Below, in pieces: positions 43,242 to 58,457 of a DNA stretch of 64,000 nt. How positions within the stretch are numbered: the first letter of the stretch is position 1; every line of letters begins with the position of its first letter. Made by a program: the position numbers and the translations under genes. Source of the DNA: an uncultured Verrucomicrobiota bacterium (lineage in GTDB: Bacteria; Verrucomicrobiota; Kiritimatiellia; JAAZAB01); contig CAZTWL010000006.1 of assembly GCA_964617825.1 (NCBI GenBank), positions 23,315-87,314 on the forward strand, in the 5' to 3' direction. The notes beneath the pieces are model-generated. The model did no database searches and was not told the DNA's origin. It saw nothing but the letters and a program-made list of their open reading frames with translations.

Positions 43242-43844
43242 CTAAGCCATCTCCGTCTTGCCCTGACCCCGCGGATATTGAGGAAGTCGCCGCGGCATCG
43301 TCGAGTTCGCCAAATCGTCGGCGAGCCGTAGAAGCGTATTTTTTATGCGCTTGCACTGGCTTTTGCTGAAAGGCGAAAGGCCAAGCAAAGCCGACATCCA
43401 AATGCCCTCGGTGGCCAGCGAAAGGAGCATCATGTGCTCGGGATTGGGCGATGTTTTGATAATTCTGGTTAAATTCTTCAGGTTCTTCTTGCGGATGGTC
43501 TGGAGCAATTGCGGCTCGCGGGTCAAAGCCGCCAGCAAAGCCATGGCCGCGCTGCGGTAATCTTCGCCGATAGCTGACCAGGTCAGGATATAGGCCTTGA
43601 TTTCGCGGACGGGGCTTGCCGGCAGCGACGACCGGATATTATCCAGGCGCTTTTCCATGCGGTCGACAAATCTCTTCAACATTGCCCGCAGAAAATCGCG
43701 CTGGCTTGGGAAATGATACATCAGCCCGCCCTTGCTGACGCCAGCCTTGGAAGCCACGGCATCCATGGTCATATGCTTTGCGCCCTTCTTCAGCACGATC
43801 TCTTCGGCTGCATCCAGTATGCGGTCGCGTGACGACGATTTCAT
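43242..43844 (-). CDS. TetR/AcrR-family transcriptional regulator
   Basis: It has the N-terminal TetR HTH (RDRILDAAEEIVLKKGAKHMTMDAVASKAGVSKGGLMYHFPSQ). Confidence 0.8.
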   Translation of the reverse strand: MKSSSRDRILDAAEEIVLKKGAKHMTMDAVASKAGVSKGGLMYHFPSQRDFLRAMLKRFVDRMEKRLDNIRSSLPASPVREIKAYILTWSAIGEDYRSAAMALLAALTREPQLLQTIRKKNLKNLTRIIKTSPNPEHMMLLSLATEGIWMSALLGLSPFSKSQCKRIKNTLLRLADDLANSTMPRRLPQYPRGQGKTEMA

Positions 43845-43869
43845 GCTAACTCCTCCCGTGTGGTTAAGG

Positions 43870-43891
43870 CTATACCAACTGGTCGGTATAG
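43870..43891. promoter_or_regulatory. palindromic putative TetR operator (CTATACCAACTGGTCGGTATAG)
   Basis: A near-perfect 22-bp palindrome 26 bp upstream of the tetR start codon. Confidence 0.4.
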
Positions 43892-44282
43892 TATCAATAT
43901 TATATTTGTCATCCGGAGGCCAGCATTACGCCGTTCTGGGAAGAATCCCGGCGCGACCAGTTCAACCGGCTTTCCGGCCCCTGGAACTGTGAGGGCCGCC
44001 AGCCCGAACCTGCTATGGAGTCGAGCGGCAGCCGCGCCAGACGCTTGGTATGACCATGCCGCCGGGGTGATCATCGTGCGGAAAACCTGTCGCCTGCCGG
44101 TTCCAAACCGGCGGCGGATGGGCCGGACCGCCGCCGAGAACGTGCCGTCACGGCCTGCAGTAGCGGTTCCTGTTGGAATTTGTCGGGTTTGCGCTAGCAT
44201 TCATGGACGCGACTTGCTACATTGACCGCCAACGTGTCTTGAACTGGTCGGATCGGCAAAGAGTCTGCCGGATCAGGCTATC

Positions 44283-44477
44283 GTGCAAGAACAAGAACGC
44301 TGGCTCTCGGTCGAGGAGATTGCCGTCCACCTAGGCGTCAATCGGGACACGATTTACAAGTGGATTGATCGGTGTCAGATGCCCGCCCACAAGCTCGGTA
44401 AGCTTTGGAAATTCAAGGCGACCGAGGTTGACGAGTGGATTCGAGAGGGCAAAGCAGGCGAAGGGGAACGCAAGTGA
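44283..44477 (+). CDS. small excisionase/AlpA-family HTH DNA-binding protein
   Basis: 64 aa. An LSVEEIAVHLGVNRDTIYKWI helix-turn-helix is present. This is the first gene of the lower-GC island. Confidence 0.6.
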   Translation: MQEQERWLSVEEIAVHLGVNRDTIYKWIDRCQMPAHKLGKLWKFKATEVDEWIREGKAGEGERK

Positions 44478-44511
44478 ACATGACCTCGATCATGGGAATG
44501 GGACGGACGTA

Positions 44512-47500
44512 ATGCCCCAGATATTCGACAACATCGAGAAGCACCTTCTGACGGCCCTCTCCGAAGCGATGGGACTCTCGAAGAGGTCTGATTTCTGCGT
44601 CGGCTACTTCAACCTTCGCGGATGGCGGCAGATTGATTCCTTCGTCGAGAAATGGCCTGGTGGGGACGGCAACTGTTGCCGGTTAATGGTCGGCATGCAG
44701 ACCCTTCCGGCCGAGGATCTCCACGCTGCCCTCAGTCTCGCCACAACACCAGCCCGCATGGACAACGCCACGGCGCTCCGTCTGAAGAAGGCGCTGGCGG
44801 AGGAGTTCCGTAACCAGCTCTGTATCGGCGCGCCTACCGAAGATGACGAACGTGGCCTCCGCCGATTGGCCGCCCAGATCAAAGCGCAGAAGGTCGTCGT
44901 CAAACTCTTCGTCAAGCACCCGCTGCATGCCAAGCTCTACCTCCTTTTTCGCCCAGACCCGATCAACCCCATCGTCAGTTATCTCGGCAGCAGCAATCTC
45001 ACCCTGGCGGGCCTGTCCAAACAGGGCGAGTTGAACGTGGACGTGCTCGACCATGATGCCACCCAGAAACTCGCAAGGTGGTTTGAAGACCGATGGAACG
45101 ATCACTGGTGCCTCGATATCTCGAAGGAGCTGGTCGAGATCATCGAAACGAGCTGGGCGCGAGAGACGCCCATCCCGCCGTATCACATCTACCTGAAGAT
45201 CGCCTATTGCCTCTCCCAAGAGGCCCGCGCTGGCCTCACCGAGTTCCGCATCCCCAAGGAGTTCGGGAACAAGCTCTTTGATTTCCAGAAAGCTGCGGTC
45301 AAGATCGCCGCTCATCATCTGAACAAGCGTCACGGCGTTATGATCGGCGACGTGGTCGGGCTGGGCAAGACCATCATGGCAACCGCCGTGGCCCGCATCT
45401 TCGAAGATGACCACGGTCTGGAGACCCTGATCATCTGCCCGAAGAACCTCGTTCGCATGTGGGAGGACTACAAGGAGCAGTACCGGCTGCATGCCAGGGT
45501 TCTCTCCATCACCCGGGCCATTGCCGAACTGCCCGAGTGTCGCCGTTACCGTCTCGTCGTGGTGGACGAGAGTCACAACCTCCGCAACCGCGAGGGCAAG
45601 CGCTACCACGCCATCCGCGACTACATAGAGAAGAACGAAAGCCGTGTTATCCTGCTGTCGGCCACGCCTTACAACAAGAGCTACCTCGACCTGGCCAGCC
45701 AACTCCGACTCTTCGTTGCCGAAGACCGTGACCTCGGCATCCGCCCGGAGCGCTTGCTTCAGGAAGTTGGCGAGACCGAGTTCATCCGACAGCACCAGTG
45801 CGCGGTCCGTTCGCTCGCTGCTTTCGAGCACAGCGAACACCCGGACGACTGGCGTGAACTCATGCGACTCTACCTTGTCCGTCGCACGCGCAGTTTCATT
45901 CAGGACAACTATGCGCAGTATGACCCCCAGCGGAAACAGAAGTTCCTGACCTTTGAAGACGGACGCCGTTCCTATTTCCCGACGCGCGTTCCCAAGACGC
46001 TCAAGTTCCGCGTGGACGAGTGCGACAAGAACGATCAGTACGGCCGCCTCTACTGCGAGGACGTGGTCAAGATCATAAACAAACTCGATCTGCCGCGCTA
46101 TGGTCTGGGTAACTACGTCGCGCCGTCGTCGGACAAGCCCCCATCACAACCCGAGGCCAAACAGATCGAGGACCTATCCCGCGCCGGCAAACGCCTCATG
46201 GGGTTCTGTCGGACGGGCCTTTTCAAGCGTCTGGAGAGTAGCGGTGCGGTCTTCCTGCAGTCCATCGAGCGCCATATCCTACGCAACTATGTCTACATAC
46301 ATGCCATCGAGAACGGTTTTCCGGTCCCCATCGGCACGCAGGATGTGGAAATGCTCGACTCGCGCGTGTACGACGAAGATGCCGACGACGTAAACGCCCG
46401 TCTCGATATTGAGGAGGACGCGACCGAGGAAGCGGCCAACGCCTGCCAGCAACCGCTGCGCACCCCAGAGCAATTCCGTGCCAAAGCCAAAGAGGTCTAT
46501 GAGTTCTACGACAAACACGCCAAGCGCCGCTTCAAGTGGCTGCGGTCCGGCCTGTTCATCGCCGAACTGCGTGATGACCTCGAAAACGATGCCAAAAGCC
46601 TGCTGAAAATTCTGAAGAGCGCCGGGCAGTGGGAACCAGCGGCCGACACAAAACTGCAGACCCTTGCCGCCACCCTCAAGAAGACGCACCCCGGCGACAA
46701 GGTTATAATCTTTACCCAGTTCGCCGACACCGCCCGCTACCTGGAGCGCCAACTTTCTGCCATGAGCGTGGACCGTATCGCGGGTGCGACCGGCGATTCC
46801 AGCGACCCGACCCTTATCGCCTGGCGGTTCAGCCCTGTGAGCAATGGCAAGTGCGCCAGTGTCGCTCCTCTCGATGAACTTCGCGTCCTCGTTGCTACCG
46901 ATGTCCTCAGCGAAGGCCAGAACCTCCAGGATTGTCACATCGTCGTCAACTACGACCTGCCCTGGGCCATCATTCGGCTCATTCAGCGTGCGGGCCGGGT
47001 GGACCGCATCGGTCAGGAGGCGGACACCATCGTCTGTTACTCGTTCCTGCCCGCAGAGGGCGTGGAGAAGATCATCCGCCTCCGCAGTCGGGTTCGCCAG
47101 CGGCTTCAACAGAACCAAGAGGTCGTCGGGGCTGACGAACTCTTCTTCGAAGACCAGCGCGACGAAGCCAAGGCACTCAACGATCTCTACACCGAGAAGG
47201 CCGGTATCCTTGACGGCGAGGCCGACAACGAAGTGGACCTTTCGTCCTACGCTTACCAAATATGGAAGAACGCCCTTGATGCCAATCCAGAACTGGAGAA
47301 GATCGTCCCCGAACTACCGCCGGTGGTGTACAGCTCGCGACCCTGGTCCCCAACTTCCGAAAAACCCGAGGGTGTCCTGGTCTACCTCAAGACAGCTGAC
47401 GGCAACGATGCCCTGGCCTGGATGAACAAAGCTGGTGAGAGCGTCACAGAATCCCAGTACGCTATCCTGCGCGCGGCCGAGTGCAAACCGGAAACGCCGC

Positions 47501-47895
47501 ACGTGTCCCGCCATGTTAACCATCATCAACTGGTGCAGGAGGGCGTCAAACTGATCGTGAAGGAGGAGCGCGCCATCGGCGGCCAGCTCGGGCGGCCATC
47601 CGGCGCGCGCTTCCGCACCTACGAACGCCTGAAAGCCCACGCCGAGGATATTGAGGGTACGCTCTTCGAGTCGACATTGCTGCACAAGGCCATAGAACAG
47701 ATCTACCGTTACCCGCTCCGCCAAACCGCCGTTGACACACTCAACCGTCAACTTCGGTCAGGCATCACCAACCAGGCGCTCGCCGATCTCGTCATGGCCC
47801 TGTACGAAGAAGACCGGCTTTGCATCGTCCATGAGAAGGAAGAAAGCCACGAGCCCCGTATCATCTGCTCTATGGGGTTGAGGGCAGGTGAGTAG
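44512..47895 (+). CDS. PLD-like (HKD) nuclease domain fused to SNF2-family helicase (DrmC+DrmD-like)
   Basis: About 1,128 aa from the ATG at 44512. Single HKD motif (HAKLYLL...GSSNLT). SNF2 motif I (GLGKT), motif II (DESH) and helicase-C (ATDVLSEGQNLQ, QRAGRVDRIGQ) are all present. Confidence 0.8.
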   Translation: MPQIFDNIEKHLLTALSEAMGLSKRSDFCVGYFNLRGWRQIDSFVEKWPGGDGNCCRLMVGMQTLPAEDLHAALSLATTPARMDNATALRLKKALAEEFRNQLCIGAPTEDDERGLRRLAAQIKAQKVVVKLFVKHPLHAKLYLLFRPDPINPIVSYLGSSNLTLAGLSKQGELNVDVLDHDATQKLARWFEDRWNDHWCLDISKELVEIIETSWARETPIPPYHIYLKIAYCLSQEARAGLTEFRIPKEFGNKLFDFQKAAVKIAAHHLNKRHGVMIGDVVGLGKTIMATAVARIFEDDHGLETLIICPKNLVRMWEDYKEQYRLHARVLSITRAIAELPECRRYRLVVVDESHNLRNREGKRYHAIRDYIEKNESRVILLSATPYNKSYLDLASQLRLFVAEDRDLGIRPERLLQEVGETEFIRQHQCAVRSLAAFEHSEHPDDWRELMRLYLVRRTRSFIQDNYAQYDPQRKQKFLTFEDGRRSYFPTRVPKTLKFRVDECDKNDQYGRLYCEDVVKIINKLDLPRYGLGNYVAPSSDKPPSQPEAKQIEDLSRAGKRLMGFCRTGLFKRLESSGAVFLQSIERHILRNYVYIHAIENGFPVPIGTQDVEMLDSRVYDEDADDVNARLDIEEDATEEAANACQQPLRTPEQFRAKAKEVYEFYDKHAKRRFKWLRSGLFIAELRDDLENDAKSLLKILKSAGQWEPAADTKLQTLAATLKKTHPGDKVIIFTQFADTARYLERQLSAMSVDRIAGATGDSSDPTLIAWRFSPVSNGKCASVAPLDELRVLVATDVLSEGQNLQDCHIVVNYDLPWAIIRLIQRAGRVDRIGQEADTIVCYSFLPAEGVEKIIRLRSRVRQRLQQNQEVVGADELFFEDQRDEAKALNDLYTEKAGILDGEADNEVDLSSYAYQIWKNALDANPELEKIVPELPPVVYSSRPWSPTSEKPEGVLVYLKTADGNDALAWMNKAGESVTESQYAILRAAECKPETPHVSRHVNHHQLVQEGVKLIVKEERAIGGQLGRPSGARFRTYERLKAHAEDIEGTLFESTLLHKAIEQIYRYPLRQTAVDTLNRQLRSGITNQALADLVMALYEEDRLCIVHEKEESHEPRIICSMGLRAGE

Positions 47896-47931
47896 TAATT
47901 AGACAATGCAGAAACAACAAGGAGGCTTCGT

Positions 47932-48270
47932 ATGGCGGAGAAATGGACGCAGGAATTACGAAGGATTGCTTTTGCGCGTTTAGCCATGGAGTTTGGCTCG
48001 CAATATTGGGATAAAAACAAGACAGAACTATCCTTCCCAAAACTTACGACTGAGGATGAGGTGTTGGAGCAGATTGCCCGGTACCTCACATGGTTCACTG
48101 GCGAGACGTTTACGGGCAAGAACGTCAACGCACAACTCGCATGGGCAAAGACTGAGCAAAAGCAGGTCATGAAGACCCAGACCAAACAGTTCGTCCTGTG
48201 CCAGGCGGCAGCCTATGAGGTTGGTTTGATTCGCAACCAACCCGCACGTGCGACGACTATTGGTGTATGA
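47932..48270 (+). CDS. hypothetical 112-aa protein between helicase and methyltransferase genes
   Basis: The ORF has a plausible RBS and sits inside the operon. No similarity recognised. Confidence 0.4.
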   Translation: MAEKWTQELRRIAFARLAMEFGSQYWDKNKTELSFPKLTTEDEVLEQIARYLTWFTGETFTGKNVNAQLAWAKTEQKQVMKTQTKQFVLCQAAAYEVGLIRNQPARATTIGV

Positions 48271-48312
48271 TGCTTTGGCAATATAAGCTTTCAGGATTTC
48301 TTCGAAATCGGA

Positions 48313-51300
48313 GTGGATACATTCATGAACAAAGCCACCGCCCGTGAACTCCTTCGCCAGTTTGACTTCAAAGCGCTCTTCCTCAACGAACTCGGCTGGG
48401 ACGATCACGACGGCTCGCTGCCCCTCAAGGTCGGCGAGGATACTGTCACATTGACCGCGGTCGCCGAGAAGCGCGGCATGGCGGCTTACCTTTGCGTCGT
48501 GCCCGGACAGAGGCGATCCTACGACTACCAGACGCGCTGCAAGATCGAAATCCAACTCGCCAAGAGCGTCCGCGAGCATCTGGTCATTTACGCCGATCCC
48601 AACCGTCGCTTCCAGACCTGGCAGTGGGTTAAACGTGAGCCCGGCAAACCTATCGCCCGCCGCGAGCACACGCTCACCGCCAACCAATCCGGTGAGGCTC
48701 TTCTCCAGAAAATTGAAGCCCTGGAGGTCAAGATCGAGGAAGAGGATCAACTCACTCTCGTCGGCATCACCGCGCGTGCACGCCAGGCATTCGACGTGGA
48801 CCGCGTCACCAAGCGCTTCTACGACCGCTTCAAGACCGAGCACGCCGCCTTCCTCAAACAGATTGAAGGCATTGGCGACGAAGACGAGTGCGAATGGTAC
48901 GCATCGATCATGCTCAATCGTCTCAAGTTTGTGTACTTCATTCAGAAGAAGGGTTTCCTCGACCAGGACAAGGACTACCTGCGCAACCGTCTTGCCATGG
49001 TCCAGAAGACCCGACCAAAGACGAAATTCCTCACTTTCTACCGAGCTTTTCTATTGAAGCTCTTCCACGACGGCCTCGGCCGCAAGGAACGCAGTCCCGA
49101 GCTGCACAAACTTCTCGGCACTGTGCCATATCTGAATGGCGGTATCTTTGCCGTCCACCCTCTGGAGGAGAAATACACCGGGATTGATATCCCGGACAAA
49201 GCCTTCGAAAAAGTTTTTGCTTTTTTTGACCAATACCGCTGGCATTTGGACGAGCGTCCCCTCCGTGCCGACGACGAGATCAACCCCGATGTTCTCGGCT
49301 ACATCTTCGAAAAGTACATCAACCAGAAGCAGATGGGGGCCTACTACACCAAGGAAGATATTACCGAGTACATCGCCAAGAACTGCATCGTTCCCTTCAT
49401 CCTCGACCGCGTCGAAACAGACCTCAAGAAGAAACCGGACGCCTTCCGCGCCCTTTTCCAACTGTTGGCCGCCGATCCTGACCGCTACATCTACGATCCC
49501 GTTAAACACGGCGTTGTGCTACCGCTACCGCCCGAGATCGAAAAGGGTGTGGATACGAAGAAGCCGAATCTTATGGAACGCCGCGCTGCCTGGAATAAAC
49601 CCGCCTCATCCGAGTATGCCCTTCCGACCGAGATCTGGCGTGAGGTCGTCGCCCGTCGTCAGCGCTGTGCCGAGTTGCGAACTCGCCTTTCCGCCATTAT
49701 GCCCGATGCCGCCCAATCATTCACAGCAAACGAACTGATCACCCTCAATCTGAACATTCGCCAGTTTGCCCAGGACTGCATCGAGAACGCCGCCACCCCG
49801 GACGTCCTCTGGGCGTTCTGGCAGGCCATCGAACAGATCACTGTCCTCGACCCCACCTGCGGATCAGGTGCATTTCTGTTTGCGGCTGTCAACGTGCTGG
49901 AACCGCTCTACGAAGCTTGCCTGGACCGTATGAAGGCGTTTATGCTCGAATGGCGCCAATCTATCAAGGCACCGTACCCCAACTTCTACAACAAATTCGA
50001 CGCCGTCATTGCGCGCGTCGAAAAACACGCCAACGAAAAGTATTTTATCTTCAAGTCCATTATCATTCGCAATCTCTACGGCGTCGACATCATGGATGAG
50101 GCTGTCGAGATCTGCAAACTACGTCTATTTCTTAAACTTGCTGCCCAGATCGAGCCTGATTATTCTCAAGAGAATCTTGGTATAGAGCCCCTGCCGGACA
50201 TTGATTTCAATGTCCGCGCTGGCAACACGCTAGTTGGCTTTGCCACGGAGAAACAAGCCGAGGAAGTCATCCGACAGGATCTGTTGGCCTACAACACCGT
50301 TTGGCCGGAGGTTCAGCGTGATGTCAAAGAGATCGCGGAGATGTTTGCCTTGTTTCGGCAGCAACAGACAGACCTGGGTGGTGCAGTATGCTCAGAAGAT
50401 AAAGCGCGTCTTCGCAAACGTATTACGCCTCTTGAGGCGCGACTCAATCAGTATCTAGCAGATGCTTACGACATCAACACGAAGGCTGCCGTCAAGGAGT
50501 GGGTTTCAAAGCACAAACCCTTCCACTGGTTTATCGAGTTTTATGCCATTATTTCGAGTGGTGGATTCTGTGTGGTCATAGGTAACCCTCCTTATGTGGA
50601 GTGCCATAAGAACACCAAAGGGACAATTGCCCTTGTGGATGAATACAAGACGCACGATACCGCGAACCTATATCCGTTTATAGTGGAGCGTTCCACGCAT
50701 CTCGTGCGGCCCCGCGGCAGTCTCGGTGTCATTCTACCCCTCAGCGCATTCTGTACTCAGAGAATGGAACCTCTCGTTTCGCTCATCGTCGAACTTCCTG
50801 GTGACAAGTGGATCTCCCACTTCGGGTGGCGACCGGCTACACTCTTTAGTGGTGTTAACATCCCCCTGTCAATTATACTCTGCTTACCGCACTCAGGTTC
50901 ACGGCTGTATACCACGACCTTCCAAAAATGGTACCAAGAAGCCCGTGATTACTTATTTTCACTGATCCAATACGCCGACACCGAAGGATTTGTTCAGAAC
51001 AAATACGTCATCCCTAAGATCGGCAACTCTACGGAACAGTCCATTCTTCGCAAGGCCTTCTCGCAAGGTAAGACTGTTGCCGCTTACCTCGCCGGTGGGA
51101 AACAAGGCGCGACATTATACTACCGGAATACAGGTGGGCTCTATTGGCGGATCATCACCGACTTCCAACCATTGTTTGAACTAGATCACACGAGAATGGC
51201 CTCAAGCACGGAGTCAACACTCATCCTCCGCGATACCAAAGCCCTTAGTGCAATAACCGCGGTCCTTAATACCAACTTCTTCTGGCTCTACTACGTAGTC

Positions 51301-51639
51301 TATTCCTCGTTCCACCACGTAAATCCTATCGACATTCTCACCGTACCGATCGATCTTGAAAGCGTTTCGCCAGATCTGTTGAAGAAGCTCTGTGACTGTG
51401 AGCGGAGACTCATGGATGACCTTAAGGCCAAAAGTCAGATACGACTCCGCTGCCACAAGGGTGGCAACGAGAGCAGTGCCCAGACGTTCTTCCCCTCCAG
51501 ATCCAAACCACTCGTCGACGCCACGGACATCGTCGTGGCTATGCACTATGGGTTTTCCCCGCACGAACTAGACTACATTCTCAACTACGACATCAAATAC
51601 AGGACGGTAGGCACGGCCGACGAGGAGGAAGACGAATGA
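48313..51639 (+). CDS. large N6-adenine DNA methyltransferase (Eco57I/DrmMI/PglX-like, gamma-class)
   Basis: 1,108 aa. SAM motif I (VLDPTCGSGAFL) and catalytic NPPY (VIGNPPYV) are present, with long N- and C-terminal extensions. Confidence 0.8.
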   Translation: MDTFMNKATARELLRQFDFKALFLNELGWDDHDGSLPLKVGEDTVTLTAVAEKRGMAAYLCVVPGQRRSYDYQTRCKIEIQLAKSVREHLVIYADPNRRFQTWQWVKREPGKPIARREHTLTANQSGEALLQKIEALEVKIEEEDQLTLVGITARARQAFDVDRVTKRFYDRFKTEHAAFLKQIEGIGDEDECEWYASIMLNRLKFVYFIQKKGFLDQDKDYLRNRLAMVQKTRPKTKFLTFYRAFLLKLFHDGLGRKERSPELHKLLGTVPYLNGGIFAVHPLEEKYTGIDIPDKAFEKVFAFFDQYRWHLDERPLRADDEINPDVLGYIFEKYINQKQMGAYYTKEDITEYIAKNCIVPFILDRVETDLKKKPDAFRALFQLLAADPDRYIYDPVKHGVVLPLPPEIEKGVDTKKPNLMERRAAWNKPASSEYALPTEIWREVVARRQRCAELRTRLSAIMPDAAQSFTANELITLNLNIRQFAQDCIENAATPDVLWAFWQAIEQITVLDPTCGSGAFLFAAVNVLEPLYEACLDRMKAFMLEWRQSIKAPYPNFYNKFDAVIARVEKHANEKYFIFKSIIIRNLYGVDIMDEAVEICKLRLFLKLAAQIEPDYSQENLGIEPLPDIDFNVRAGNTLVGFATEKQAEEVIRQDLLAYNTVWPEVQRDVKEIAEMFALFRQQQTDLGGAVCSEDKARLRKRITPLEARLNQYLADAYDINTKAAVKEWVSKHKPFHWFIEFYAIISSGGFCVVIGNPPYVECHKNTKGTIALVDEYKTHDTANLYPFIVERSTHLVRPRGSLGVILPLSAFCTQRMEPLVSLIVELPGDKWISHFGWRPATLFSGVNIPLSIILCLPHSGSRLYTTTFQKWYQEARDYLFSLIQYADTEGFVQNKYVIPKIGNSTEQSILRKAFSQGKTVAAYLAGGKQGATLYYRNTGGLYWRIITDFQPLFELDHTRMASSTESTLILRDTKALSAITAVLNTNFFWLYYVVYSSFHHVNPIDILTVPIDLESVSPDLLKKLCDCERRLMDDLKAKSQIRLRCHKGGNESSAQTFFPSRSKPLVDATDIVVAMHYGFSPHELDYILNYDIKYRTVGTADEEEDE

Positions 51640-52412
51640 AAAAGGCACTGTGGAAAGCACTTGCAGCGGTTACTGCGAAGAAGAAGACAAACTACACCGA
51701 ATCAGAACTGATTCTCCCAGCCTTGAGGCTCTTGGCTGGTCGCACTACCCCCGTTACGACATCCGACTTGATCGCCCAACTGGAGGCCGATCTTCGTCCC
51801 AAAGGTCACGACGCAGAACTGATCCAAGGCCGCAATGACACCTACTTTAGTCAGAAGGTACGGAACCTCAAGTCACACGATTCATTGAAGCGCCTGAGAC
51901 TCGCGAAACACCATGCAGGGAAGTGGCAGATTACAGAAAGCGGTAGGGACTTCCTTGCAAACAGCACATTGCATGTTGAAAGCATGCTGAATCAAGGCTT
52001 TAGACCCCGGTGCCTGAGCAGACGTGATCAGTTTGACTACTCCAAGCTTGTCATAGAGGAGGGAGCAAGCATTCCTACTTTAGGTCAGGCACGCAAGAGA
52101 AGCGACAGATTGAAGGCTATCGCCATTTCATCTTTCAAAAGAGACAACAAAGGGCGCGTATTCTGCACCGTGTGCGACTTTGACTTCGCCCGCAAGTACG
52201 GTTCTCACGGACGAGGCTTCATCGAAGTACATCATCTGGATCCCATCTTTGAGAAAGATGTGCGGGGAGAAAAGGTTCAACTGCTAAAGGCTCTGACCAG
52301 AGTCACACTTGTCTGCTCTAATTGTCATCGTATGATTCACCGCCGCAAAGGACACATGCTTGGGATAACAGCATTGAAGAAGCTTGTCTTGGCGCATAAG
52401 TGCAAGTCGTAG
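51636..52412 (+). CDS. HNH endonuclease with N-terminal winged-helix-like domain
   Basis: The C-terminal CxxC...HH...CxxCH HNH motif (CTVCDF...EVHHLDPI...CSNCHRMIH) is present. The start codon overlaps the MTase stop (ATGA). Confidence 0.75.
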   Translation: MKKALWKALAAVTAKKKTNYTESELILPALRLLAGRTTPVTTSDLIAQLEADLRPKGHDAELIQGRNDTYFSQKVRNLKSHDSLKRLRLAKHHAGKWQITESGRDFLANSTLHVESMLNQGFRPRCLSRRDQFDYSKLVIEEGASIPTLGQARKRSDRLKAIAISSFKRDNKGRVFCTVCDFDFARKYGSHGRGFIEVHHLDPIFEKDVRGEKVQLLKALTRVTLVCSNCHRMIHRRKGHMLGITALKKLVLAHKCKS

Positions 52413-52461
52413 CCGAACGCAGGTATCCTCACTGAAAATAGGAAAGCGGACTAGCCAACGC

Positions 52462-53058
52462 ATGAAGACACTGCGCACAGCCGGGAACTATATCCTTCTC
52501 AACCGTCCCAAGATCGCCCTGTACTGTTCCGCCAAGTGCCCGGGCAAACTGATCCTGGACACTTACGACCTCGCCAAGCAGTGCCGGGAAAAGGGTGTCA
52601 CGGTCATTAGCGGCTTTCATTCCCCGATGGAGGAGGAGTGCCTCCGTATCTTGCTCCGCTCGACGCATCCGGTAATCTGGTGCCTTGCCCGCAGCATGCT
52701 TAAACGCATTCCCACAAAGCCCGTTGATTGCCGCGCCGCAGTCGCCGAAGGTCGCCTCTTGATCGTATCACCATTTAAAGATACCGTTCGCCATATCACG
52801 GCCAAAACCGCTATGGCCCGTAACCGATTCGTCGCTGAAAAGGCATCTGCTGTTGTTGTCGCCCACGCTGCCCCCGGCAGCAAGATCGAAGCCCTCAGCC
52901 TGGAACTACTTGCCGTTGGCAAGCCTCTCTACACCTTTGACCACCCCGCCAATGCAGTCCTTCTCACTCAAGGCGCAAGAGATATACGTCAACTTAACCT
53001 CGCGGAATTTGCATACATGAGAGGTAAGGTGACCTGCTCCCCAAAAACTGATCCATGA
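52462..53058 (+). CDS. DprA/Smf-like (SLOG superfamily) Rossmann-fold protein
   Basis: The ALYCSAKCPGKLILDTYDLAKQCREKGVTVISGFHSPMEEECLRILL pattern parallels the DprA Rossmann core (xxGSR...vvSGlArGiD..ah). The six-frame ORF starts at 52384. Confidence 0.45.
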   Translation: MKTLRTAGNYILLNRPKIALYCSAKCPGKLILDTYDLAKQCREKGVTVISGFHSPMEEECLRILLRSTHPVIWCLARSMLKRIPTKPVDCRAAVAEGRLLIVSPFKDTVRHITAKTAMARNRFVAEKASAVVVAHAAPGSKIEALSLELLAVGKPLYTFDHPANAVLLTQGARDIRQLNLAEFAYMRGKVTCSPKTDP

Positions 53059-53294
53059 CAGAAGAGAGTCCTCCGGTACCGCGTTGTCAAAGATCGGGAG
53101 CCGTGGTTTCAGATCATAATGAGCCAGAAGTTCGAGTTTGACGAAAAGACCGCAGCGGATCTGGCCCGTCGGGTTCCGCTACCAGAAGCCCTGGCCCGGT
53201 CGCTTGTCTTTGACCTTCGGCGATTTTGGTAGCGGTCAGGTCTTAAGCCGGGATTTCAATGGGGACACTCGGCAGGGCATAAGCCTGCCATAGC

Positions 53295-54758
53295 CTAACT
53301 ATTCAAGTCAGAGGCCGTTTTCAACCTGCGCAAAATATCAATCAATCCCCCGGTGTCCTGCCCGCAATACTTTAACAGTTGTTTCCGCACCTTCTGCCTT
53401 TCCTGTTGGGGCACGTCGCCGAACGTCACCCGCATGAATTCATCGGCGGCAACGGAACCGCCGGCAATTTCCATGTTGGCATAAGATCGGTCCGTTATGG
53501 CTGGCATTACCCGCTTTAGTGAATTGCTGCCATACTGATTAGGATGATGATAGTCCGCTTTTCTAAAGGGCGCAATCAAATCCTTAATGCGTGGCAGAGC
53601 CCGGTTGATCCACGGGCGATGTTCAGGAAACGCCTGGGCCATTTGATCCAGCATGGATTTCTCGAATGCCATATTAAACGCCAAGATGGTGGCGGAATTG
53701 CCAATATGCTGCTTCAAGTTCGACAGCAATGCCGGCCGGGGATCGTGCCTGCCTTCCGCTAGAAATTCATGATGGACCGGTTGCGCTTTAAGTCCCGATA
53801 GGATGTGCAGCGAATACTGGAAGGGGATCTGCTGAAAAGGCTTGGTGCCGTCGTAGAGGGGGATTGCCGTATTGAATGACTCAAAATCCAGAAACCGGAT
53901 CGGATATTCAAGATCAGCCAGGAACTCCCTGATTGCTTCGGGATTAATATGCGGCTTGCGGGTCTTCACGCATTTGATCTGGATGCGCTGGTAAAGGCTT
54001 AATGTTGTGTTGGCGGGAATATCCCGGATATGAAGAATGCCTTTTTCCATAAATTCAAAGGCCCTGGCGCCGATCCGGTGTAAGTCAAAAACGTTATGTT
54101 TAGGGAGAAAGGCCCAGCATTGATCCTGGAACGGGCAGGCATAAGGCGAACTACAATGCGGGCCGACACGAATGTTAGGACATTTGGTATCCAGAGCCTT
54201 GATCATGACCGCAACCGATTTGGGCACGTCGCGAATCAACTCAGATACCTCCTTGGATATCAGGTTTACGTTGAATAGTTTGCTAACCTTGATCGGTCCA
54301 TTCTTGACATAATCACTGTTTATTGTGGCAATCCGACATTGACGGACAGGCAGGCCGGATTTGTCGCAAACGTATTTCTGAAACGCAACGTCCTGATAAT
54401 AGCAGTCTTTTATTTTTGCCGATGATTTGACCTCCACTATATCCCATCCACCCCGGACTGGTGCCAGGATGTCGATCTGGGCATACAGGTTGCCCGAGCC
54501 AATCGCCGCCTCATAAATGGGCTTCCGTTGAGTTAATGCGGCCTGGGTAGCTTTGATCCGGTCCGATATGCTCGATGTCGTATCAATCGCTATGCCGTCG
54601 GGGAATAGATTGCGGGCGCATAGGCCGACTTCCTGGCCGGCCATAAGGATTTTCTGGCGGGCAGCATCATAGACTATCAGCTCGGGCCGATGGATCCGAT
54701 TCCACAGGTATTTGAGACACTGTAATCCGGCCATGTAGCTGCTTTTGGATATATGCAT
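53295..54758 (-). CDS. DUF2779-like protein with N-terminal PD-(D/E)xK (Cas4/RecB-like) nuclease motif
   Basis: The N-terminus MHISKSSYMAGLQCLKYLW, a DIVEVKSS motif and conserved Cys residues match DUF2779. Confidence 0.5.
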   Translation of the reverse strand: MHISKSSYMAGLQCLKYLWNRIHRPELIVYDAARQKILMAGQEVGLCARNLFPDGIAIDTTSSISDRIKATQAALTQRKPIYEAAIGSGNLYAQIDILAPVRGGWDIVEVKSSAKIKDCYYQDVAFQKYVCDKSGLPVRQCRIATINSDYVKNGPIKVSKLFNVNLISKEVSELIRDVPKSVAVMIKALDTKCPNIRVGPHCSSPYACPFQDQCWAFLPKHNVFDLHRIGARAFEFMEKGILHIRDIPANTTLSLYQRIQIKCVKTRKPHINPEAIREFLADLEYPIRFLDFESFNTAIPLYDGTKPFQQIPFQYSLHILSGLKAQPVHHEFLAEGRHDPRPALLSNLKQHIGNSATILAFNMAFEKSMLDQMAQAFPEHRPWINRALPRIKDLIAPFRKADYHHPNQYGSNSLKRVMPAITDRSYANMEIAGGSVAADEFMRVTFGDVPQQERQKVRKQLLKYCGQDTGGLIDILRRLKTASDLNS

Positions 54759-54891
54759 ATCAGGATTCCTTTATGCTTTTAGCATGGTGTTACCTCCGAT
54801 TCAATTACAGCTTAACGGAGTTGATCTGTCTTCTTCAGAATACGAAGATTTTATCCGGATATCCTCCTGGCCTTGATTATTATTTCTTAAA

Positions 54892-55434
54892 CTACAAGCA
54901 TCCATTTATAACCCTGAGAATAACCCATCGCTCTTGCATGTCATCCCAGTAATGCAGGCTGAAACGCAACGCCGGATATTGCTTTGAGACCTGTTGTAAC
55001 CATGGATATGGCGGACTCCACGGCGTTTTGAATTTATAAAATAACCGACGCTTGGATTCGCGAACAAGCTTGGATTCAGACGTGTCCCATTTGCAACCCC
55101 AATGCTTTATGCACCAGGGAATAATCGGATCCTCATAATCATTGTCGCCCACTTTAACGTATGGCTTTTTGGTAACCGCCAAGGGAACCGGCACCAATCG
55201 GTCAAAACTCAGGTCAACGACCACAGGCTTGGATCCCTTTCTCCCAGACTGATGATTGTCATCTCTTTCTTTTATTTGGTAAAAAGAATTGCTTGTCCAA
55301 GCCGCCTTGGTTGTTTTGAGACGATTATAATTTGTTTTTGCAGAGAAATATGAATCCCTGTTTTGGGCCCTAAACGTTGCAATATCTTGTGCAGGCCCAA
55401 CAATATATAATTTATTACGCACCCAGTTTGGCAT
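54892..55434 (-). CDS. hypothetical protein (possibly DUF1281/Api92-like)
   Basis: Likely start MPNWVRNKLYIVGP. Trp/Pro-rich. Low-GC. Confidence 0.3.
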   Translation of the reverse strand: MPNWVRNKLYIVGPAQDIATFRAQNRDSYFSAKTNYNRLKTTKAAWTSNSFYQIKERDDNHQSGRKGSKPVVVDLSFDRLVPVPLAVTKKPYVKVGDNDYEDPIIPWCIKHWGCKWDTSESKLVRESKRRLFYKFKTPWSPPYPWLQQVSKQYPALRFSLHYWDDMQERWVILRVINGCL

Positions 55435-55438
55435 GATG

Positions 55439-55801
55439 TTATTCATCCTGCTTTTCATCTTCGATCCTTGCAACAGGCACGTCGACAATCGTTATTGTGT
55501 CGGTGCCAAAAGTGGACAGAATCGGGACGAACATCGGCGCTACACGCCATTCTTCTATAACAGGGTCGGCAGCCTGGATCATTGCACGCACCTGCATGCG
55601 CTTGAGCAGCCACCTGCTATGGCACCTGGCACATTCAATCACTTTCCCGACAGCCTCCGATGCCGTATCAGCCTCCTCGCAATTAGAAACCTGGTATTCC
55701 TGATTGCTGGGGCATTGCTTGCATCCTATGGCTATGACCACGATGTTACCGCTCAGTTCTTCCTGCTCTTCCTTTGCCGGTTGCAGCCTGTTCGTTTGCA
55801 T
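55439..55801 (-). CDS. small Cys-rich (zinc-ribbon-like) hypothetical protein
   Basis: CxxC...CxxCH pattern (CKQCP, CARCHS). Likely start MQTNRLQP. Confidence 0.3.
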   Translation of the reverse strand: MQTNRLQPAKEEQEELSGNIVVIAIGCKQCPSNQEYQVSNCEEADTASEAVGKVIECARCHSRWLLKRMQVRAMIQAADPVIEEWRVAPMFVPILSTFGTDTITIVDVPVARIEDEKQDE

Positions 55802-55891
55802 AATACCTCCCCTCATTTATTGGTTTTATTTTCGGTTAATTCATGCTTACATCGCCGAATAATGAGTATTTCTTTTTTTCTGCGGCCAATG

Positions 55892-55924
55892 TAGCATGGG
55901 ACATAGGACAAACATCGTCCTAAG
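55892..55924. promoter_or_regulatory. conserved 33-bp motif TAGCATGGGACATAGGACAAACATCGTCCTAAG containing palindrome GGAC-N7-GTCC; second copy at 57774-57806
   Basis: Seen directly. Copy 1 lies in the divergent promoter of the WYL regulator gene. Copy 2 lies between the Sel1 gene and the 57891 gene. The copies are 29/33 identical. Confidence 0.5.
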
Positions 55925-55948
55925 CAAATAATAATTGGATTTATTTTT

Positions 55949-56929
55949 ATGTCGGATCCCAAGTTCAAACCCCAGTTTCGAAGACTTCAATTCATCGATG
56001 AGCAGATCCGGGCGGGTAAATACCCCAATTGCTTCCAGATGGGCAAAGAGCAGGAGGTCAGCTATAAGACCATCCAGCGGGATATTGATTACATGAAATA
56101 TGAGCTGGGGGCGCCCATTGAATACGACAAGGTCAAACGCGGCTTCCGTTACACCGATAACACCTGGTTTCTTAAATCTGTTCTACTGTCAGAAGGTGAG
56201 CTTTTTGCCATGCTGGTGGGCTCCCAGGCCATGACGATGTACCGGGGTATGCCGGTAGCCAAGGAGCTGGAGGCGATATTCGGTAAGTTGGCGGCCTGTC
56301 TGCCAGATAAATTGACCGTTTCGCCCGAGCTGATCTATTCACGGTTCACGTTCAGTGGGCCGCCGGCCAAGGTAATCCGCGAGGATGTCTGGAAAGGGGT
56401 AGTGCGGGGCTTGATGAACCAGCGCGAACTGGAAATACGCTATCAATCACTCCACGCGCAACAGCCCAAAACGCATGCAGTCCAGCCCTGCCACCTGGCC
56501 AATCTGGATGGTGAATGGTATTTGTTCGCCTATGACCCCAAGCACAAGGAAATTGTCCAGTATTCCGTCGGACGGATTGAATCGGTCACGGTGAGCGAAC
56601 GCACGTTCACGCTTCCGGCAACCGTCAACATGGGAAAGTTGCTGGCCGATCGTTTTGGCCGGTTTATACACAGCGAGAAATATAAGCCGATTGTCGTCCG
56701 GCTGCTTTTTGATGCGAAGCTGGCCGCCTATATTTCGGAAAAGACCTGGCATCCCGGGCAAACACTCAAGCCCCGGCGCGGAGGCGCGGTAGAATTATGC
56801 CTGCCGGTGCCGGCTGTCCGGGACGTGAGGCCCTGGATTATGAGTTTTGGTTCGAAGGTCAAGGTCCTGGCGCCGAAATCACTGGCCGAAGCGATCAGGC
56901 AGGAACATTATCAGGCTGCAAAGGTATAA
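55949..56929 (+). CDS. WYL-domain transcriptional regulator (BrxR/CapW-like: N-terminal wHTH + WYL + C-terminal domain)
   Basis: A literal WYL motif (DGEWYLFAYDP) is present with an N-terminal HTH. The 326-aa length is typical of BrxR-family regulators in defence islands. Confidence 0.7.
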   Translation: MSDPKFKPQFRRLQFIDEQIRAGKYPNCFQMGKEQEVSYKTIQRDIDYMKYELGAPIEYDKVKRGFRYTDNTWFLKSVLLSEGELFAMLVGSQAMTMYRGMPVAKELEAIFGKLAACLPDKLTVSPELIYSRFTFSGPPAKVIREDVWKGVVRGLMNQRELEIRYQSLHAQQPKTHAVQPCHLANLDGEWYLFAYDPKHKEIVQYSVGRIESVTVSERTFTLPATVNMGKLLADRFGRFIHSEKYKPIVVRLLFDAKLAAYISEKTWHPGQTLKPRRGGAVELCLPVPAVRDVRPWIMSFGSKVKVLAPKSLAEAIRQEHYQAAKV

Positions 56930-57017
56930 TAAATCTAGTGAGAAATAGCATTAAGAGCTTTCTGAGCCTCTGCTTCTCCCTGCTTGGCTGCCTTTTGAAA
57001 CTATTTCACGACCTTGG

Positions 57018-57659
57018 CTATATCCTGAAGTATCCCGTCGCCGTTCGCATAACATAACCCAGGATTATTTTGCACTCCTGCATCTCCCTGCTTGGCCACC
57101 ACGCTATGGCCTTGGTTAAATCCTTGGGCACACCATTGCCGTTCGCATAAGATAAACCAAGATTAATTTGAGCCTCTGCAACACCCTGCTCGGCTGCTTT
57201 CTGCCACCACTCTGTTGCCTTGGTTAAATCCTTGGGCACGCCTTCGCCATCTAAATAACATACCCCAAGATTAAATTGAGCATCTGCATCTCCCTGATCG
57301 GCGGCCTTCTGATACAATTCTACGGCCTTGGTTATATCCTTTGAAACGCTAGTACCGTTTTCATAAAAGACTCCAAGGCAACATTGAGCCGCTGCATTTC
57401 CCTGATCCGCTGCTTTCTGAAACCATTCTGCTGCCTTGGTTAAATCCTCGGGTACACCTTCGCCCTTCGCATAACATAGACCAAGATTAAATTGAGCGTC
57501 TGCATCTCCCTGACCGGCGGCCTTCTGATACAATTCTACGGCCTTGGCTATATCCTTGGAAACGCCATTGCCGTTTTCATAACATACCCCAAGATTAAAG
57601 CGGGCAGCTGCATCTCCCTGATCGGCTGATTCGGCTAATTTGTTGAGATTTTTACGCAT
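57018..57659 (-). CDS. Sel1-like repeat (TPR-like) protein
   Basis: Six repeats of A(Q/A)xNLGxCYxxGxGVxKDxxKAxEWxQKAA. Confidence 0.75.
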   Translation of the reverse strand: MRKNLNKLAESADQGDAAARFNLGVCYENGNGVSKDIAKAVELYQKAAGQGDADAQFNLGLCYAKGEGVPEDLTKAAEWFQKAADQGNAAAQCCLGVFYENGTSVSKDITKAVELYQKAADQGDADAQFNLGVCYLDGEGVPKDLTKATEWWQKAAEQGVAEAQINLGLSYANGNGVPKDLTKAIAWWPSREMQECKIILGYVMRTATGYFRI

Positions 57660-57773
57660 ATGGCGTTCTCCTATTAGAGCCCTGTAATATGGGCTGCATC
57701 TACAGTAAGTATTTTTAGCCACGACATTCCTTTATTGTGAACCTCTTTAGTTTCCTTATTTTTGCTCCCACGA

Positions 57774-57806
57774 TAGCATGGGGCATAGGACAAACAGCGT
57801 CCCAAG
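57774..57806. promoter_or_regulatory. second copy of GGAC-N7-GTCC-containing motif (TAGCATGGGGCATAGGACAAACAGCGTCCCAAG)
   Basis: See 55892-55924. Confidence 0.5.
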
Positions 57807-57890
57807 AAAAAATTATTAGGATTGTTTTATGACGGTTCGCGAGTTTAATCTGTAACAGGAGACATAAAATCACATAGAGGCCTATCATCT

Positions 57891-58457
57891 ATGATCGACA
57901 GCGAAACAGCCAAAGTTATAGCCCGACTGTTAAGCGAGAGACTGGTTCAGCTTGGCAAGGAGGGCAAACAATGGGCTCCTGATCCATTTGAACCCAAGCC
58001 AGCCGTGACGCTTCGGAAAGGGATTGATATGCTGGAGGACGCGCTGAACAATCTGATTCAGTCAACAAGCGCAATTGAAAGGGAGTGCAATAAAAGCCTG
58101 AATAATATGCCGTGTGAATCAACAGGTATGGCCGATATGTCCGCCATCGAAGAGGCCGTGGCCAGAATCTTGGCGCATGTTCGGGCCATCTATCGCGTCG
58201 AGTTTCGTCTCGCCCAGGTAACGCCGCCACGGCTTCTGGAAAACTGTTTTCGTCTATTTCAGGGGATCGGACACCGGTTCGCCGGCAAACTAAACAATGC
58301 GGCCCTTGACATTAACCAAAAAGCAGAAGGTCCTTTTAAAACCGGCGTAATCTATACAACATACACCTTAGGCTTTGAACCAAACGAGGAGCAACTCGTT
58401 GCCGAATTCAACCGCGTTAGGGATGTTATTCGGGAGGTTGGGCAGCTGAAGCGCTAG
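57891..58457 (+). CDS. hypothetical protein
   Basis: 188-aa ORF downstream of the conserved motif. No domain recognised. Confidence 0.4.
   Translation: MIDSETAKVIARLLSERLVQLGKEGKQWAPDPFEPKPAVTLRKGIDMLEDALNNLIQSTSAIERECNKSLNNMPCESTGMADMSAIEEAVARILAHVRAIYRVEFRLAQVTPPRLLENCFRLFQGIGHRFAGKLNNAALDINQKAEGPFKTGVIYTTYTLGFEPNEEQLVAEFNRVRDVIREVGQLKR

Follow-up and report, generated by a model that had tools for sequence, protein, structure and literature searches.

In MANTIS, the N6-adenine methylase MtsC recognises the site and hemimethylates an asymmetric 6-bp sequence, and the effector MtsD joins an N-terminal HKD/PLD nuclease to an SF2 helicase-like ATPase and forms a single PLD site on dimerisation (bioRxiv 10.64898/2026.09.23.753747). 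In the Type ISP enzymes LlaGI and LlaBIII, a gamma-class adenine methylase and a target-recognition domain occur together with a nuclease and an SF2 translocase; their sites are asymmetric, and cleavage takes place when translocating enzymes converge (PMC7049714). In addition, the DprA-like antitoxin ShosA binds ssDNA and RecA (PMC11961720, PMC12961424), and the Synechocystis methylase Slr6050, the knockout of which could not be segregated, has been tentatively identified as M.Ssp6803IV with the motif GA(m6A)GGC (PMC6105098). The locus described here occupies positions 44283-53058 of the window, that is, the whole stretch of 64,000 nucleotides that was analysed. We propose, with a probability of about 0.65, that it encodes a three-gene, ATP-dependent restriction-modification-like system distinct from DISARM, in which a motor-nuclease and a methylase/specificity subunit are separate proteins.

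The locus consists, as the initial annotation had claimed, of six co-directional open reading frames on the forward strand (Table 1), all of which agree with the NCBI gene calls on the 127,053-bp contig. Profile searches against Pfam, PADLOC and NCBIfam confirmed its domain calls, and the locus does look like the restriction-modification-like defence operon that had been suggested. A tetR gene (43242-43844, minus strand) diverges from the operon at a distance of 438 bp. The description of a lower-GC block holds for the block as a whole (0.554 versus 0.586 upstream), but not for the helicase gene (0.595); the drop in GC begins at about 47.9 kb and runs to about 58.5 kb, reaching 0.49.

Table 1. 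Features of the locus, in positions of the window
Feature	Position	Strand	Remarks
HTH_17, excisionase-type HTH, 64 aa	44283..44477	+	Pfam E 4.6e-15
PLD(HKD)-SNF2 helicase-nuclease, 1127 aa	44512..47895	+	PLDc_2, SNF2-rel_dom, Helicase_C; core gene 1
Single HKD-type nuclease motif, H139-A-K141 ... G159-S-S-N162	44926..45003	+	Invariant in 12-sequence alignment
112-aa ORF, variable slot 1, guest gene	47932..48270	+	AAGGAGG Shine-Dalgarno upstream
Eco57I/MmeI-like gamma-class N6-adenine methylase, 1104 aa	48325..51639	+	Eco57I/MmeI_Mtase; core gene 2
Winged-helix (Mrr_N-like) + HNH nuclease, 258 aa, variable slot 2	51636..52412	+	Guest gene
DprA-fold (SLOG superfamily) protein, 198 aa	52462..53058	+	Core gene 3, last in operon

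The helicase-nuclease, whose longest reading frame (44365-47895) is shortened in the gene call to the ATG at 44512, bears the motifs HAK (residue 139), GSSN (159), GLGKT (283), DESH (352) and QRAGRVDRIGQ (825), and almost all of these residues are invariant or nearly so in an alignment of 12 family members. It matches the PADLOC "HKD+Snf2" model C3a139 with an E-value of 3.9e-51, and is predicted to act as both restriction motor and nuclease. As only one HKD motif is present, the active site would be formed by dimerisation, the arrangement found in Nuc, BfiI and MtsD. The homologues number more than 8000, and identities are 63-70% over a range of more than 20 phyla. At least 561 genome loci could be confirmed; the unit that the PLD-SNF2 protein forms with the methylase and the DprA-like protein is not rare.

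The methylase gene call begins at the ATG 48325 within a reading frame of 48313-51639. Its catalytic motifs (DPTCGSGAF at residue 513 and NPPY at 758) are intact and conserved, like those of the PLD and SNF2 domains, and a C-terminal segment (residues 761-1040) is variable, as a target-recognition domain should be; the protein is predicted to supply both modification and specificity. The closest solved structures by sequence profile are PglX/BrxX (E ~1e-9), and a REBASE-derived "Type IIG" model gives 1015 bits, far above the fit to DrmMI. The methylase shares its catalytic-core class and C-terminal target-recognition region with the Type IIG/IIL enzymes Eco57I, MmeI, DrdV and BpuSI, but differs from them in lacking a conserved N-terminal nuclease motif and in its obligate linkage to a separate motor-nuclease. 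Its N-terminus has no conserved canonical nuclease motif and matches no Pfam nuclease family; the N-terminal domain nevertheless shows a weak fold likeness to Type IIG nuclease domains, which leaves room for a nuclease within the methylase itself. The locus might then comprise two adjacent, independent systems, a self-contained Type IIG methylase-nuclease and a SauUSI-type nuclease-helicase that either works alone or depends on modification, a reading that we regard as unlikely.

The gene neighbourhood was compared over 80 loci, with open reading frames called by a simple custom script. As these loci are those of the best-scoring helicase relatives, the frequencies hold for that clade only: the methylase gene comes next after the helicase-nuclease gene on the same strand in 76 of the 79 informative loci, from more than 20 phyla, and the two genes often overlap or lie less than 70 nt apart. 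A DprA-like gene of about 200 aa is terminal and on the same strand in 26 of the 35 loci with enough downstream DNA, which bears out its assignment to the operon. Beyond it, the flanking DNA varies between loci, indicating that the DprA-like gene travels with the system. Compared to the window, locus L081 shows 87% identity in the helicase and 73% in the DprA-like protein, and distant loci show 65-70% and 35-55%, respectively, so that the three core genes diverge together. In the decayed locus L092, most of the helicase and methylase is gone, and the HTH, the guest genes and the DprA-like gene are kept. The window itself carries a helicase-nuclease, a methylase of about 1,100 aa and a DprA-fold gene in this order. 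Judged from synteny, the conserved unit is a widespread set of three genes without a name, with swappable guests inside the operon.

Two positions within the operon, slot 1 between the helicase and methylase genes and slot 2 between the methylase and DprA-like genes, are variable. Elsewhere they hold PIN, MazE, DUF1016, AAA_21, RhuM, kinase and other HNH genes, with DUF1016, PDDEXK_3, MazE, PIN or AAA_21 genes in slot 1; such genes, of defence and toxin-antitoxin kinds, are usual guests. The 112-aa protein of slot 1 has no homologue in any helicase-anchored locus searched, and 36 representatives, mostly of 100-130 aa, among 1.84 billion proteins; one relative also bears an Mrr_N domain. The slot 2 protein contains the motifs CTVC, EVHH and CSNCH, together with a weak Mrr_N match (E 0.0018). 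Among 85 helicase-anchored loci, only L085 and, as a weak match, L040 contain a homologue, as do only two of 80 HNH-anchored loci; the same position is occupied only in L085, L095 and L147. In 46 other loci, the gene upstream of this HNH family encodes a D12-class (Dam-like) methylase (40/46) or an N6_N4_Mtase (6/46). The HNH protein probably acts as an additional nuclease, either independent or auxiliary. Seven of 76 loci (~9%) have an HTH homologue upstream of the helicase, and one is also present in L083 (92% identity) and in L092; the HTH protein is predicted to be an optional upstream regulator. As the small ORF, the HNH gene and the HTH gene are rare or absent in related loci, they are best described as optional or guest genes.

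These observations bear on the earlier view of all six genes as one conserved system, which does not stand, since synteny covers only the helicase-nuclease, methylase and DprA-like genes. An obligatory, integrated and lineage-specific six-gene system would agree with the shared direction, the tight spacing and the ATGA overlap of the methylase stop with the HNH start, which is indeed present in the sequence; in L085 the HNH gene (59% identity) is coupled to the methylase by the same 4-nt overlap. However, the closest relatives, with helicases 84-94% identical, hold other slot contents (DUF1016; a kinase and an unknown gene; Mrr_N and RhuM; GmrSD_N), the small ORF is without homologues in related loci, and the HNH family mostly accompanies Dam-like methylases, which together make such a system very improbable.

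The locus was then compared with named systems, and membership failed for DISARM and BREX, in agreement with the initial annotation, and also for MANTIS, Type ISP, MADS and ShosTA/PsyrTA. A PADLOC scan of the 41 other open reading frames of the window (E <= 1e-5) gave only WYL, Cas3c-like, BrxHI-like and PtuA-like matches. Class 1 DISARM shares parts with the locus, namely the SNF2 helicase DrmD, the PLD nuclease DrmC and the large adenine methylase DrmMI. A pared-down or variant form of DISARM, with fused DrmD and DrmC, DrmMI, and HNH and DprA-like proteins in place of DrmA and DrmB, would account for these shared parts and for the matches of the helicase to DrmD (PADLOC E 3.8e-34) and of the methylase to DrmMI (E 1.9e-20). 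The homology is detectable but weak, with all scores on the DrmD and DrmMI models below the family cut-offs; on NCBIfam DISARM_DrmD the helicase reaches 153.3 bits, far under the curated cut-off of 610, and the bit score of the methylase on another model is about 50-fold higher. The correspondence to DISARM that had been drawn is thus shallow. Moreover, PLD and SNF2 are fused here, and the defining DrmA (YprA helicase) and DrmB (DUF1998), already noted as missing, are absent from the locus and from every other open reading frame of the window, over 44 kb on the upstream and 11 kb on the downstream side; neither was seen in the gene tables of related loci, which were read rather than screened with models. 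The HNH protein is a rare guest and not a replacement. The DISARM-variant reading is therefore largely refuted, and retains very little probability.

Similarly, BREX types 1-6 were rejected, as the window contains no match to PglZ or BrxC. The methylase resembles BREX PglX in its catalytic-core class and C-terminal target-recognition region, and REBASE-derived models place both under "Type IIG"; the NCBIfam PglX models, however, give at most 64 bits against cut-offs of 400-900. MANTIS, also known as Gao_RL (BR type 2), shows a division of labour equal to that proposed for the window locus, but has no DprA-like gene and requires MtsA (DUF499 AAA+) and MtsB (DUF3870); neither had a PADLOC match in the rest of the window, nor was such a Pfam domain found in the six genes and ten flanking open reading frames. 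The helicase scores 148 bits on the NCBIfam PLD anti-phage model, which we take to represent the MtsD family, against a cut-off of 1100. Type ISP was rejected because its functions reside in one polypeptide with an Mrr-type PD-(D/E)xK nuclease, whereas here they are split over core genes 1 and 2, with an SNF2-type motor and an HKD/PLD nuclease. For MADS (methylation-associated defence system), which calls for MAD2-8 besides MAD1, the NCBIfam MAD1 model gives 70.8 bits on the HTH protein, under the cut-off of 80, and mad1, on this protein, is the only mad model among the best 25 PADLOC families for each protein.

The DprA-like protein matches the PADLOC PsyrA model with an E-value of 1.8e-18. 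A ShosTA or PsyrTA toxin-antitoxin pair was nevertheless rejected, as the toxin partner, a PRTase (ShosT) or a RecQ-like protein (PsyrT), is absent; PADLOC found no homologue of either in the locus or the window. Compared to these antitoxins, the protein of the window is only about 200 aa long and has the Rossmann domain alone, without a SAM domain, and its partners are the PLD-SNF2 protein and the methylase. About one quarter of the close loci are without a DprA-like gene; it is also absent from the plasmid loci of pSYSX and pPRO1, both examined from end to end, and the PLSDB plasmid records contain no orthologue with an E-value of 1e-15 or lower. The DprA-like gene is thus not essential for the helicase-methylase pair.

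The pSYSX pair of Synechocystis PCC 6803 is orthologous over its full length, with identities of 52% for the helicase and 44% for the methylase Slr6050. The gene order is the same, and slot 1 holds two guests, VapC and a hypothetical gene, but the DprA-like, HNH and HTH_17 genes are missing. This orthologous methylase has already been studied, albeit as an orphan and with no mention of the helicase (PMC6105098). The failure to segregate the Slr6050 knockout is what an active, separate cognate nuclease would lead one to expect, but it could also result from polar effects or plasmid copy number, and both the motif assignment and the "essentiality" are indirect. The apparent essentiality would also suit a module that is not primarily for defence, an epigenetic or DNA-uptake/repair unit with the methylase placing marks on DNA, and with the DprA-like protein and the SNF2 motor processing incoming or damaged ssDNA; the canonical role of DprA lies in natural transformation, and SNF2 proteins remodel protein-DNA complexes. 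By contrast, the conserved HKD nuclease, the hypervariable target-recognition segment, the patchy distribution at about 65-70% identity between phyla, the presence on plasmids and the many toxin-antitoxin and defence genes in the guest slots all count as hallmarks of restriction-modification-type conflict systems. We consider a non-defensive role quite improbable.

For the restriction-modification-like system that we favour, the methylase would use its variable C-terminal region to recognise a short, asymmetric site and would methylate the host DNA, thereby defining self, a step suggested by its family, its pattern of variability and the tentative motif of Slr6050. The PLD-SNF2 protein would be the restriction subunit, a DNA translocase carrying one HKD half-site, two copies of which must meet to complete the nuclease centre. 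It would probably be active when the methylase/specificity subunit occupies unmethylated sites, in a mode likened to that of Type ISP, Type III and MANTIS enzymes. With low confidence, the DprA-fold partner is, judging from ShosA and PsyrA, most likely a protein that binds ssDNA and/or RecA, and might either limit self-damage or gate the motor-nuclease. More tentatively, and with the odds rather against it, the trio may represent a distinct, widespread class of ATP-dependent restriction-modification in which a DprA-fold protein that binds ssDNA/RecA is a working part and the operon serves as a two-slot scaffold. The DprA-fold protein would then link restriction to the repair, by recombination, of breaks that the system itself inflicts, or else detect invading ssDNA and license the motor-nuclease, and the two recombination-prone slots would swap auxiliary cassettes for defence, for example HNH, PIN, AAA_21 or kinase genes.

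If true, the locus would represent a minimal, two- or three-protein form of the logic by which a methylase picks the site and a motor-nuclease cuts. The same logic is being worked out in the much larger MANTIS, BREX and DISARM, so that this form would offer a simpler setting in which to study the licensing of a PLD-helicase effector by a specificity/methylase subunit. The PLD-SNF2/methylase system is very common in environmental bacteria; since "Type IIG" methylase is the only label that current tools would give it, inventories of defence systems miss the nuclease partner, and the methylase risks being taken for an orphan, as Slr6050 was. Moreover, the two internal guest slots would add a further case of defence genes nested in restriction-modification operons, and the conserved DprA-fold partner would tie restriction to ssDNA/RecA biology.

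Judged by its gene content, the operon is a member of a very common, putatively restriction-modification (RM)-like system that has three conserved genes, and carries here an HTH gene, which is optional, as well as two guests. The six co-directional ORFs that the initial annotation had placed at 44283–53058 are present and all agree with the NCBI gene calls for a contig of 127 kb; the domain assignments hold as well (by Pfam, and by motif signature for the HNH protein, which gave no Pfam match above threshold), and the ATGA overlap between the methylase and HNH genes is real. The operon had also been described as a lower-GC block, which applies only in part: GC content drops from the small ORF to ~58.5 kb, whereas the helicase gene (0.595) equals the flank (0.586) in GC richness. 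A scan of 43700–53500 yielded no more promoters or terminators than shuffled sequence. No tRNA was found in the window, no Rfam family within 42–60 kb, and neither flanking direct repeats nor shufflon-like inverted repeats were detected. The gap that separates the divergent tetR from the HTH gene contains only two mutually overlapping ORFs, and a consensus promoter was not found in it.

Coordinates of the operon genes, neighbouring features and related loci (L handles, each numbered on its own sequence)
Sequence	Feature	Position	Strand	Evidence or remark
Window	HTH_17	44283 (start)	+	Pfam E 4.6e-15
Window	helicase-nuclease	44512 (likely start ATG, NCBI gene call)	+	PLDc_2, SNF2-rel_dom, Helicase_C
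Window	small ORF, 112 aa	47932–48270	+	strong Shine-Dalgarno sequence
Window	methylase	48325 (likely start ATG, NCBI gene call)	+	Eco57I, MmeI_Mtase
Window	HNH protein	overlaps methylase stop	+	CxxC...HH...CxxCH signature clear; Mrr_N-like winged helix weak
Window	DprA-like, last gene	52462 (likely start ATG, NCBI gene call)	+	DNA_processg_A
Window	tetR-HTH gap	43845–44282		438 bp, GC-rich
Window	ORF in gap	43841–44200	-	probably spurious
Window	ORF in gap	43860–44225	+	probably spurious
Window	AT-rich patch	~43885–43915		adjoins tetR start
Window	low-GC stretch	53295–58457		GC 0.49, extends beyond operon
Window	GDSL-lipase gene	58520–59383		5.5 kb downstream of operon
Window	flanking ORF	250–1392	-	PADLOC BrxHI helicase model, C-terminal part, E 2.4e-17
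L082	GDSL-lipase gene	8415–9425		directly upstream of helicase
L086 (pSYSX)	ubiquitin-like conjugation cluster	16924–19545	opposite to pair	DUF6527, ThiF-family E1, E2/UBC, multiubiquitin
L089	34-aa ORF	5265–5369		amid guests
L090	34-aa ORF	2060–2164		amid guests
L091	34-aa ORF	474–578		amid guests
L092	decayed copy of system	6887–10897

Homology search revealed more than 8000 matches to the helicase-nuclease family, many at ~69% identity in unrelated phyla, and a one-genome-per-species scan confirmed at least 561 loci. In phage genomes the family is essentially absent, with three weak partial matches only. Synteny was counted in the best 80 of these at least 561 loci, that is, around the best-scoring helicase relatives, with ORFs called by a simple custom script. 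The 80 loci belong to Verrucomicrobiota, Nitrospirota, Acidobacteriota, Planctomycetota, Chloroflexota, Latescibacterota, Desulfobacterota, Alpha- and Gammaproteobacteria, Bacillota, Gemmatimonadota and others. A same-strand homologue of the window methylase starts within 2.5 kb downstream of the helicase in 76 of 79 informative loci, and in about two thirds its start lies at most 70 nt from the helicase gene or overlaps it. The largest ORF cluster just 3' of the methylase consists of DNA_processg_A proteins. An HMM of these downstream ORFs and a tblastn search detected DprA-like orthologues (35–73% identity) in 46 of 85 loci. Each shares the strand of the operon and, with a single exception, they lie 0–5.6 kb downstream of the methylase. 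The gene is present in 26 of the 35 loci in which the methylase is complete and the sequence beyond it extends for 6 kb or more. In the loci anchored on DprA-like homologues, it is the last gene of the operon and is followed by unrelated housekeeping genes. As the helicase- and DprA-anchored surveys agree, the conserved unit comprises three genes and not the six initially proposed as one system. The DprA-like gene is not strictly required: it is missing from roughly a quarter of the close loci and from the plasmid loci pSYSX and pPRO1, and PLSDB plasmid records gave no orthologue at E 1e-15 or better.

The HNH gene, which the initial annotation included in its six-gene set, does not define the system. 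The family of its product is likewise widespread (at least 540 relatives). Another same-strand gene precedes the HNH gene in 64 of 68 loci, and the 46 preceding genes scanned encode 40 D12-class (Dam-like) methylases and six N6_N4_Mtase proteins. Only two of 80 HNH loci show the context of a big methylase and a DprA-like gene. The HNH protein is thus a methylase-associated nuclease module that was recruited into the position between methylase and DprA-like gene (slot 2). In the HNH-anchored metagenome loci (L093–L172), a winged-helix HNH gene of this family and, directly upstream, a gene for a ~395-aa D12-class (Dam-like) methylase form a very regular two-gene unit (40/46 scanned), which looks like a widespread Type II-like RM pair.

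The position between helicase and methylase (slot 1) is filled in ~23 of 69 loci, in the window by the 112-aa ORF and elsewhere by DUF1016/YhcG, PDDEXK_3, MazE, PIN or AAA_21 genes. Slot 2 holds PIN (7), HNH_2 (4), AAA_21/AAA_15 (3) and nucleotidyltransferase (3) genes, in addition to Schlafen-like, DUF3800, SMODS, UvrD, RhuM and kinase genes; three of the four HNH_2 genes bear a “methylase-associated X1” domain. Even the closest relatives (helicase 84–94% identical) differ in slot content. L081 carries a kinase and an unknown gene, L083 a GmrSD_N gene between HTH and helicase, and L085 an HNH gene whose product is 59% identical to that of the window, with the same 4-nt methylase overlap. L082 and L088, which carry DUF1016 and Mrr_N plus RhuM, respectively, both come from GCA_964463985.1 and appear to be halves of a single locus split within the methylase gene; joined, they read helicase, DUF1016, methylase, Mrr_N protein, RhuM and DprA-like, with the C-terminal end of the methylase on the second half. 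An HTH_17 gene precedes the helicase gene in seven of 76 loci and is optional; the small ORF and the HNH gene are guests in the window. No homologue of the small ORF was found in any helicase-anchored locus searched, and its family has 36 representatives among 1.84 billion proteins. Two longer relatives (260 and 424 aa) have its 112-aa domain embedded in them, and of the family members scanned, one has an Mrr_N winged helix and one DUF6508; a DNA- or restriction-related role is hinted at.

A 34-aa ORF amid the guests of three loci (L089–L091) is a copy of the last ~30–35 methylase residues, with 51–60% identity to window residues 1074–1108. Such duplication of the methylase terminus suggests recombination at the conserved 3' end of that gene as the route by which cassettes reach slot 2. 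In L092 the system has decayed: its HTH_17 is 66% identical, its helicase is reduced to residues 1–49 fused to 1057–1124, and of its methylase just an N-terminal remnant survives, with the guests DUF1016, 23S_rRNA_IVP and AbiEii and an intact DprA-like gene retained.

The helicase-nuclease combines a single HKD motif (H139, K141, GSSN) with a full SNF2 motor (GLGKT, DESH, QRAGRVDRIGQ) and, at the C-terminus, a conserved stretch of ~250 aa that matches nothing; among solved structures, RapA and other SNF2 proteins are closest to it in sequence. Motifs I and IV of the methylase read DPTCGSGAF and NPPY, respectively. Its residues 1–760 and the tail are conserved, whereas residues 761–1040 are markedly variable, which is the pattern of a putative C-terminal target-recognition domain. 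Sequence search of the methylase against the PDB gave no match, and profile search identified BREX PglX/BrxX as the nearest solved relatives, over the catalytic core only. Pfam at a permissive threshold returned neither a nuclease family nor HSDR_N for residues 1–200 of ten methylases.

An orthologous pair is present on plasmid pSYSX of Synechocystis PCC 6803 (helicase 52%, methylase 44% identity, each along its entire length); slot 1 of this locus holds a hypothetical gene and VapC. Other cultured bacteria with two-gene versions are Pelobacter propionicus (pPRO1), Pseudaminobacter salicylatoxidans DSM 6986 and Mesorhizobium sp. M0587. The ubiquitin-like conjugation cluster lies immediately downstream of the pSYSX pair and is followed by an HTH/ImmA pair; the pSYSX pair sits in a defence-island context. 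Asymmetric 6-bp m6A sites are recognised by Type IIG, Type ISP, Type III, BREX and MANTIS methylases, and a methylase that is impossible to lose is expected with a separate active cognate nuclease. The 1100-aa pSYSX methylase fits, by plasmid and length, the published Slr6050, tentatively M.Ssp6803IV with the site GA(m6A)GGC, the knockout of which could not be segregated; the neighbouring helicase is absent from the text of that study (PMC6105098). Among the papers searched, none names or tests the gene set, and an earlier in-silico description is possible; the sole mention in them is a table note, “Type II RM CDS with an upstream PLD+SNF CDS” (PMC9881135).

Comparison with named systems excluded DISARM, as the window lacks DrmA and DrmB, in line with the initial annotation, and the helicase scored 153 bits with the DrmD model against a cut-off of 610. 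BREX, MANTIS/Gao_RL, MADS, Hma (DUF3883/DUF1156/DUF499; PMC11232893) and ARMADA (YprA; bioRxiv 10.1101/2025.09.15.676423) were rejected because the core genes of each are missing, and Type ISP because the functions are split over two genes and a PLD nuclease is present. The helicase matches the PADLOC “HKD+Snf2” model (E 3.9e-51) and the methylase the “Type IIG” model; therefore, both proteins are already catalogued, separately. Altogether, the earlier reading of an RM-like operon outside DISARM and BREX is partly supported, with its domain calls but not with its six-gene unit.

The low-GC stretch beyond the operon encodes DUF2779 (-), a DUF1281_C/Api92-like protein (-), a WYL+WCX regulator (+; PADLOC WYL E 9.8e-29), a Sel1-repeat protein (-) and a 188-aa ORF without a family. 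This stretch resembles another block of a defence or mobile island, although neither an integrase nor a tRNA nor flanking repeats were detected. The BrxHI match, together with a Cas3c-like match (E 1.3e-20) and a PtuA-like AAA match (E 1.1e-10) among 41 flanking ORFs, probably reflects generic helicase/ATPase similarity. A GDSL-lipase gene is found near the operon both in the window and in L082, a 90%-identical relative, which may represent a shared insertion neighbourhood with rearrangement, or coincidence.

Observed directly are the conserved order and coupling of the trio, the intact catalytic motifs, the variable recognition segment of the methylase and the DprA fold. In the mechanism we propose, the methylase would act as the modification and specificity subunit, and the PLD-SNF2 protein as an ATP-driven translocase. 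As its single HKD half-site would require dimerisation, cleavage would come after recruitment to unmethylated sites, possibly upon convergence of two motors, for which Type ISP enzymes provide a precedent (PMC7049714); a comparable scheme has been proposed for MANTIS MtsD (bioRxiv 10.64898/2026.09.23.753747). For the DprA-like protein, the weakest step of the scheme, we favour a possible role in self-protection or gating by analogy with ShosA and PsyrA. PsyrA pairs with a helicase toxin. ShosA neutralises the toxicity of DNA damage and is able to bind both ssDNA and RecA (PMC11961720, PMC12961424). The working mode, read here from the genes, would be nearest to that of a MANTIS-like system with two genes or of a split Type ISP-like one. 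The interest of the family lies in a minimal motor-nuclease/methylase system with a conserved DprA-fold partner and cassette slots inside the operon.
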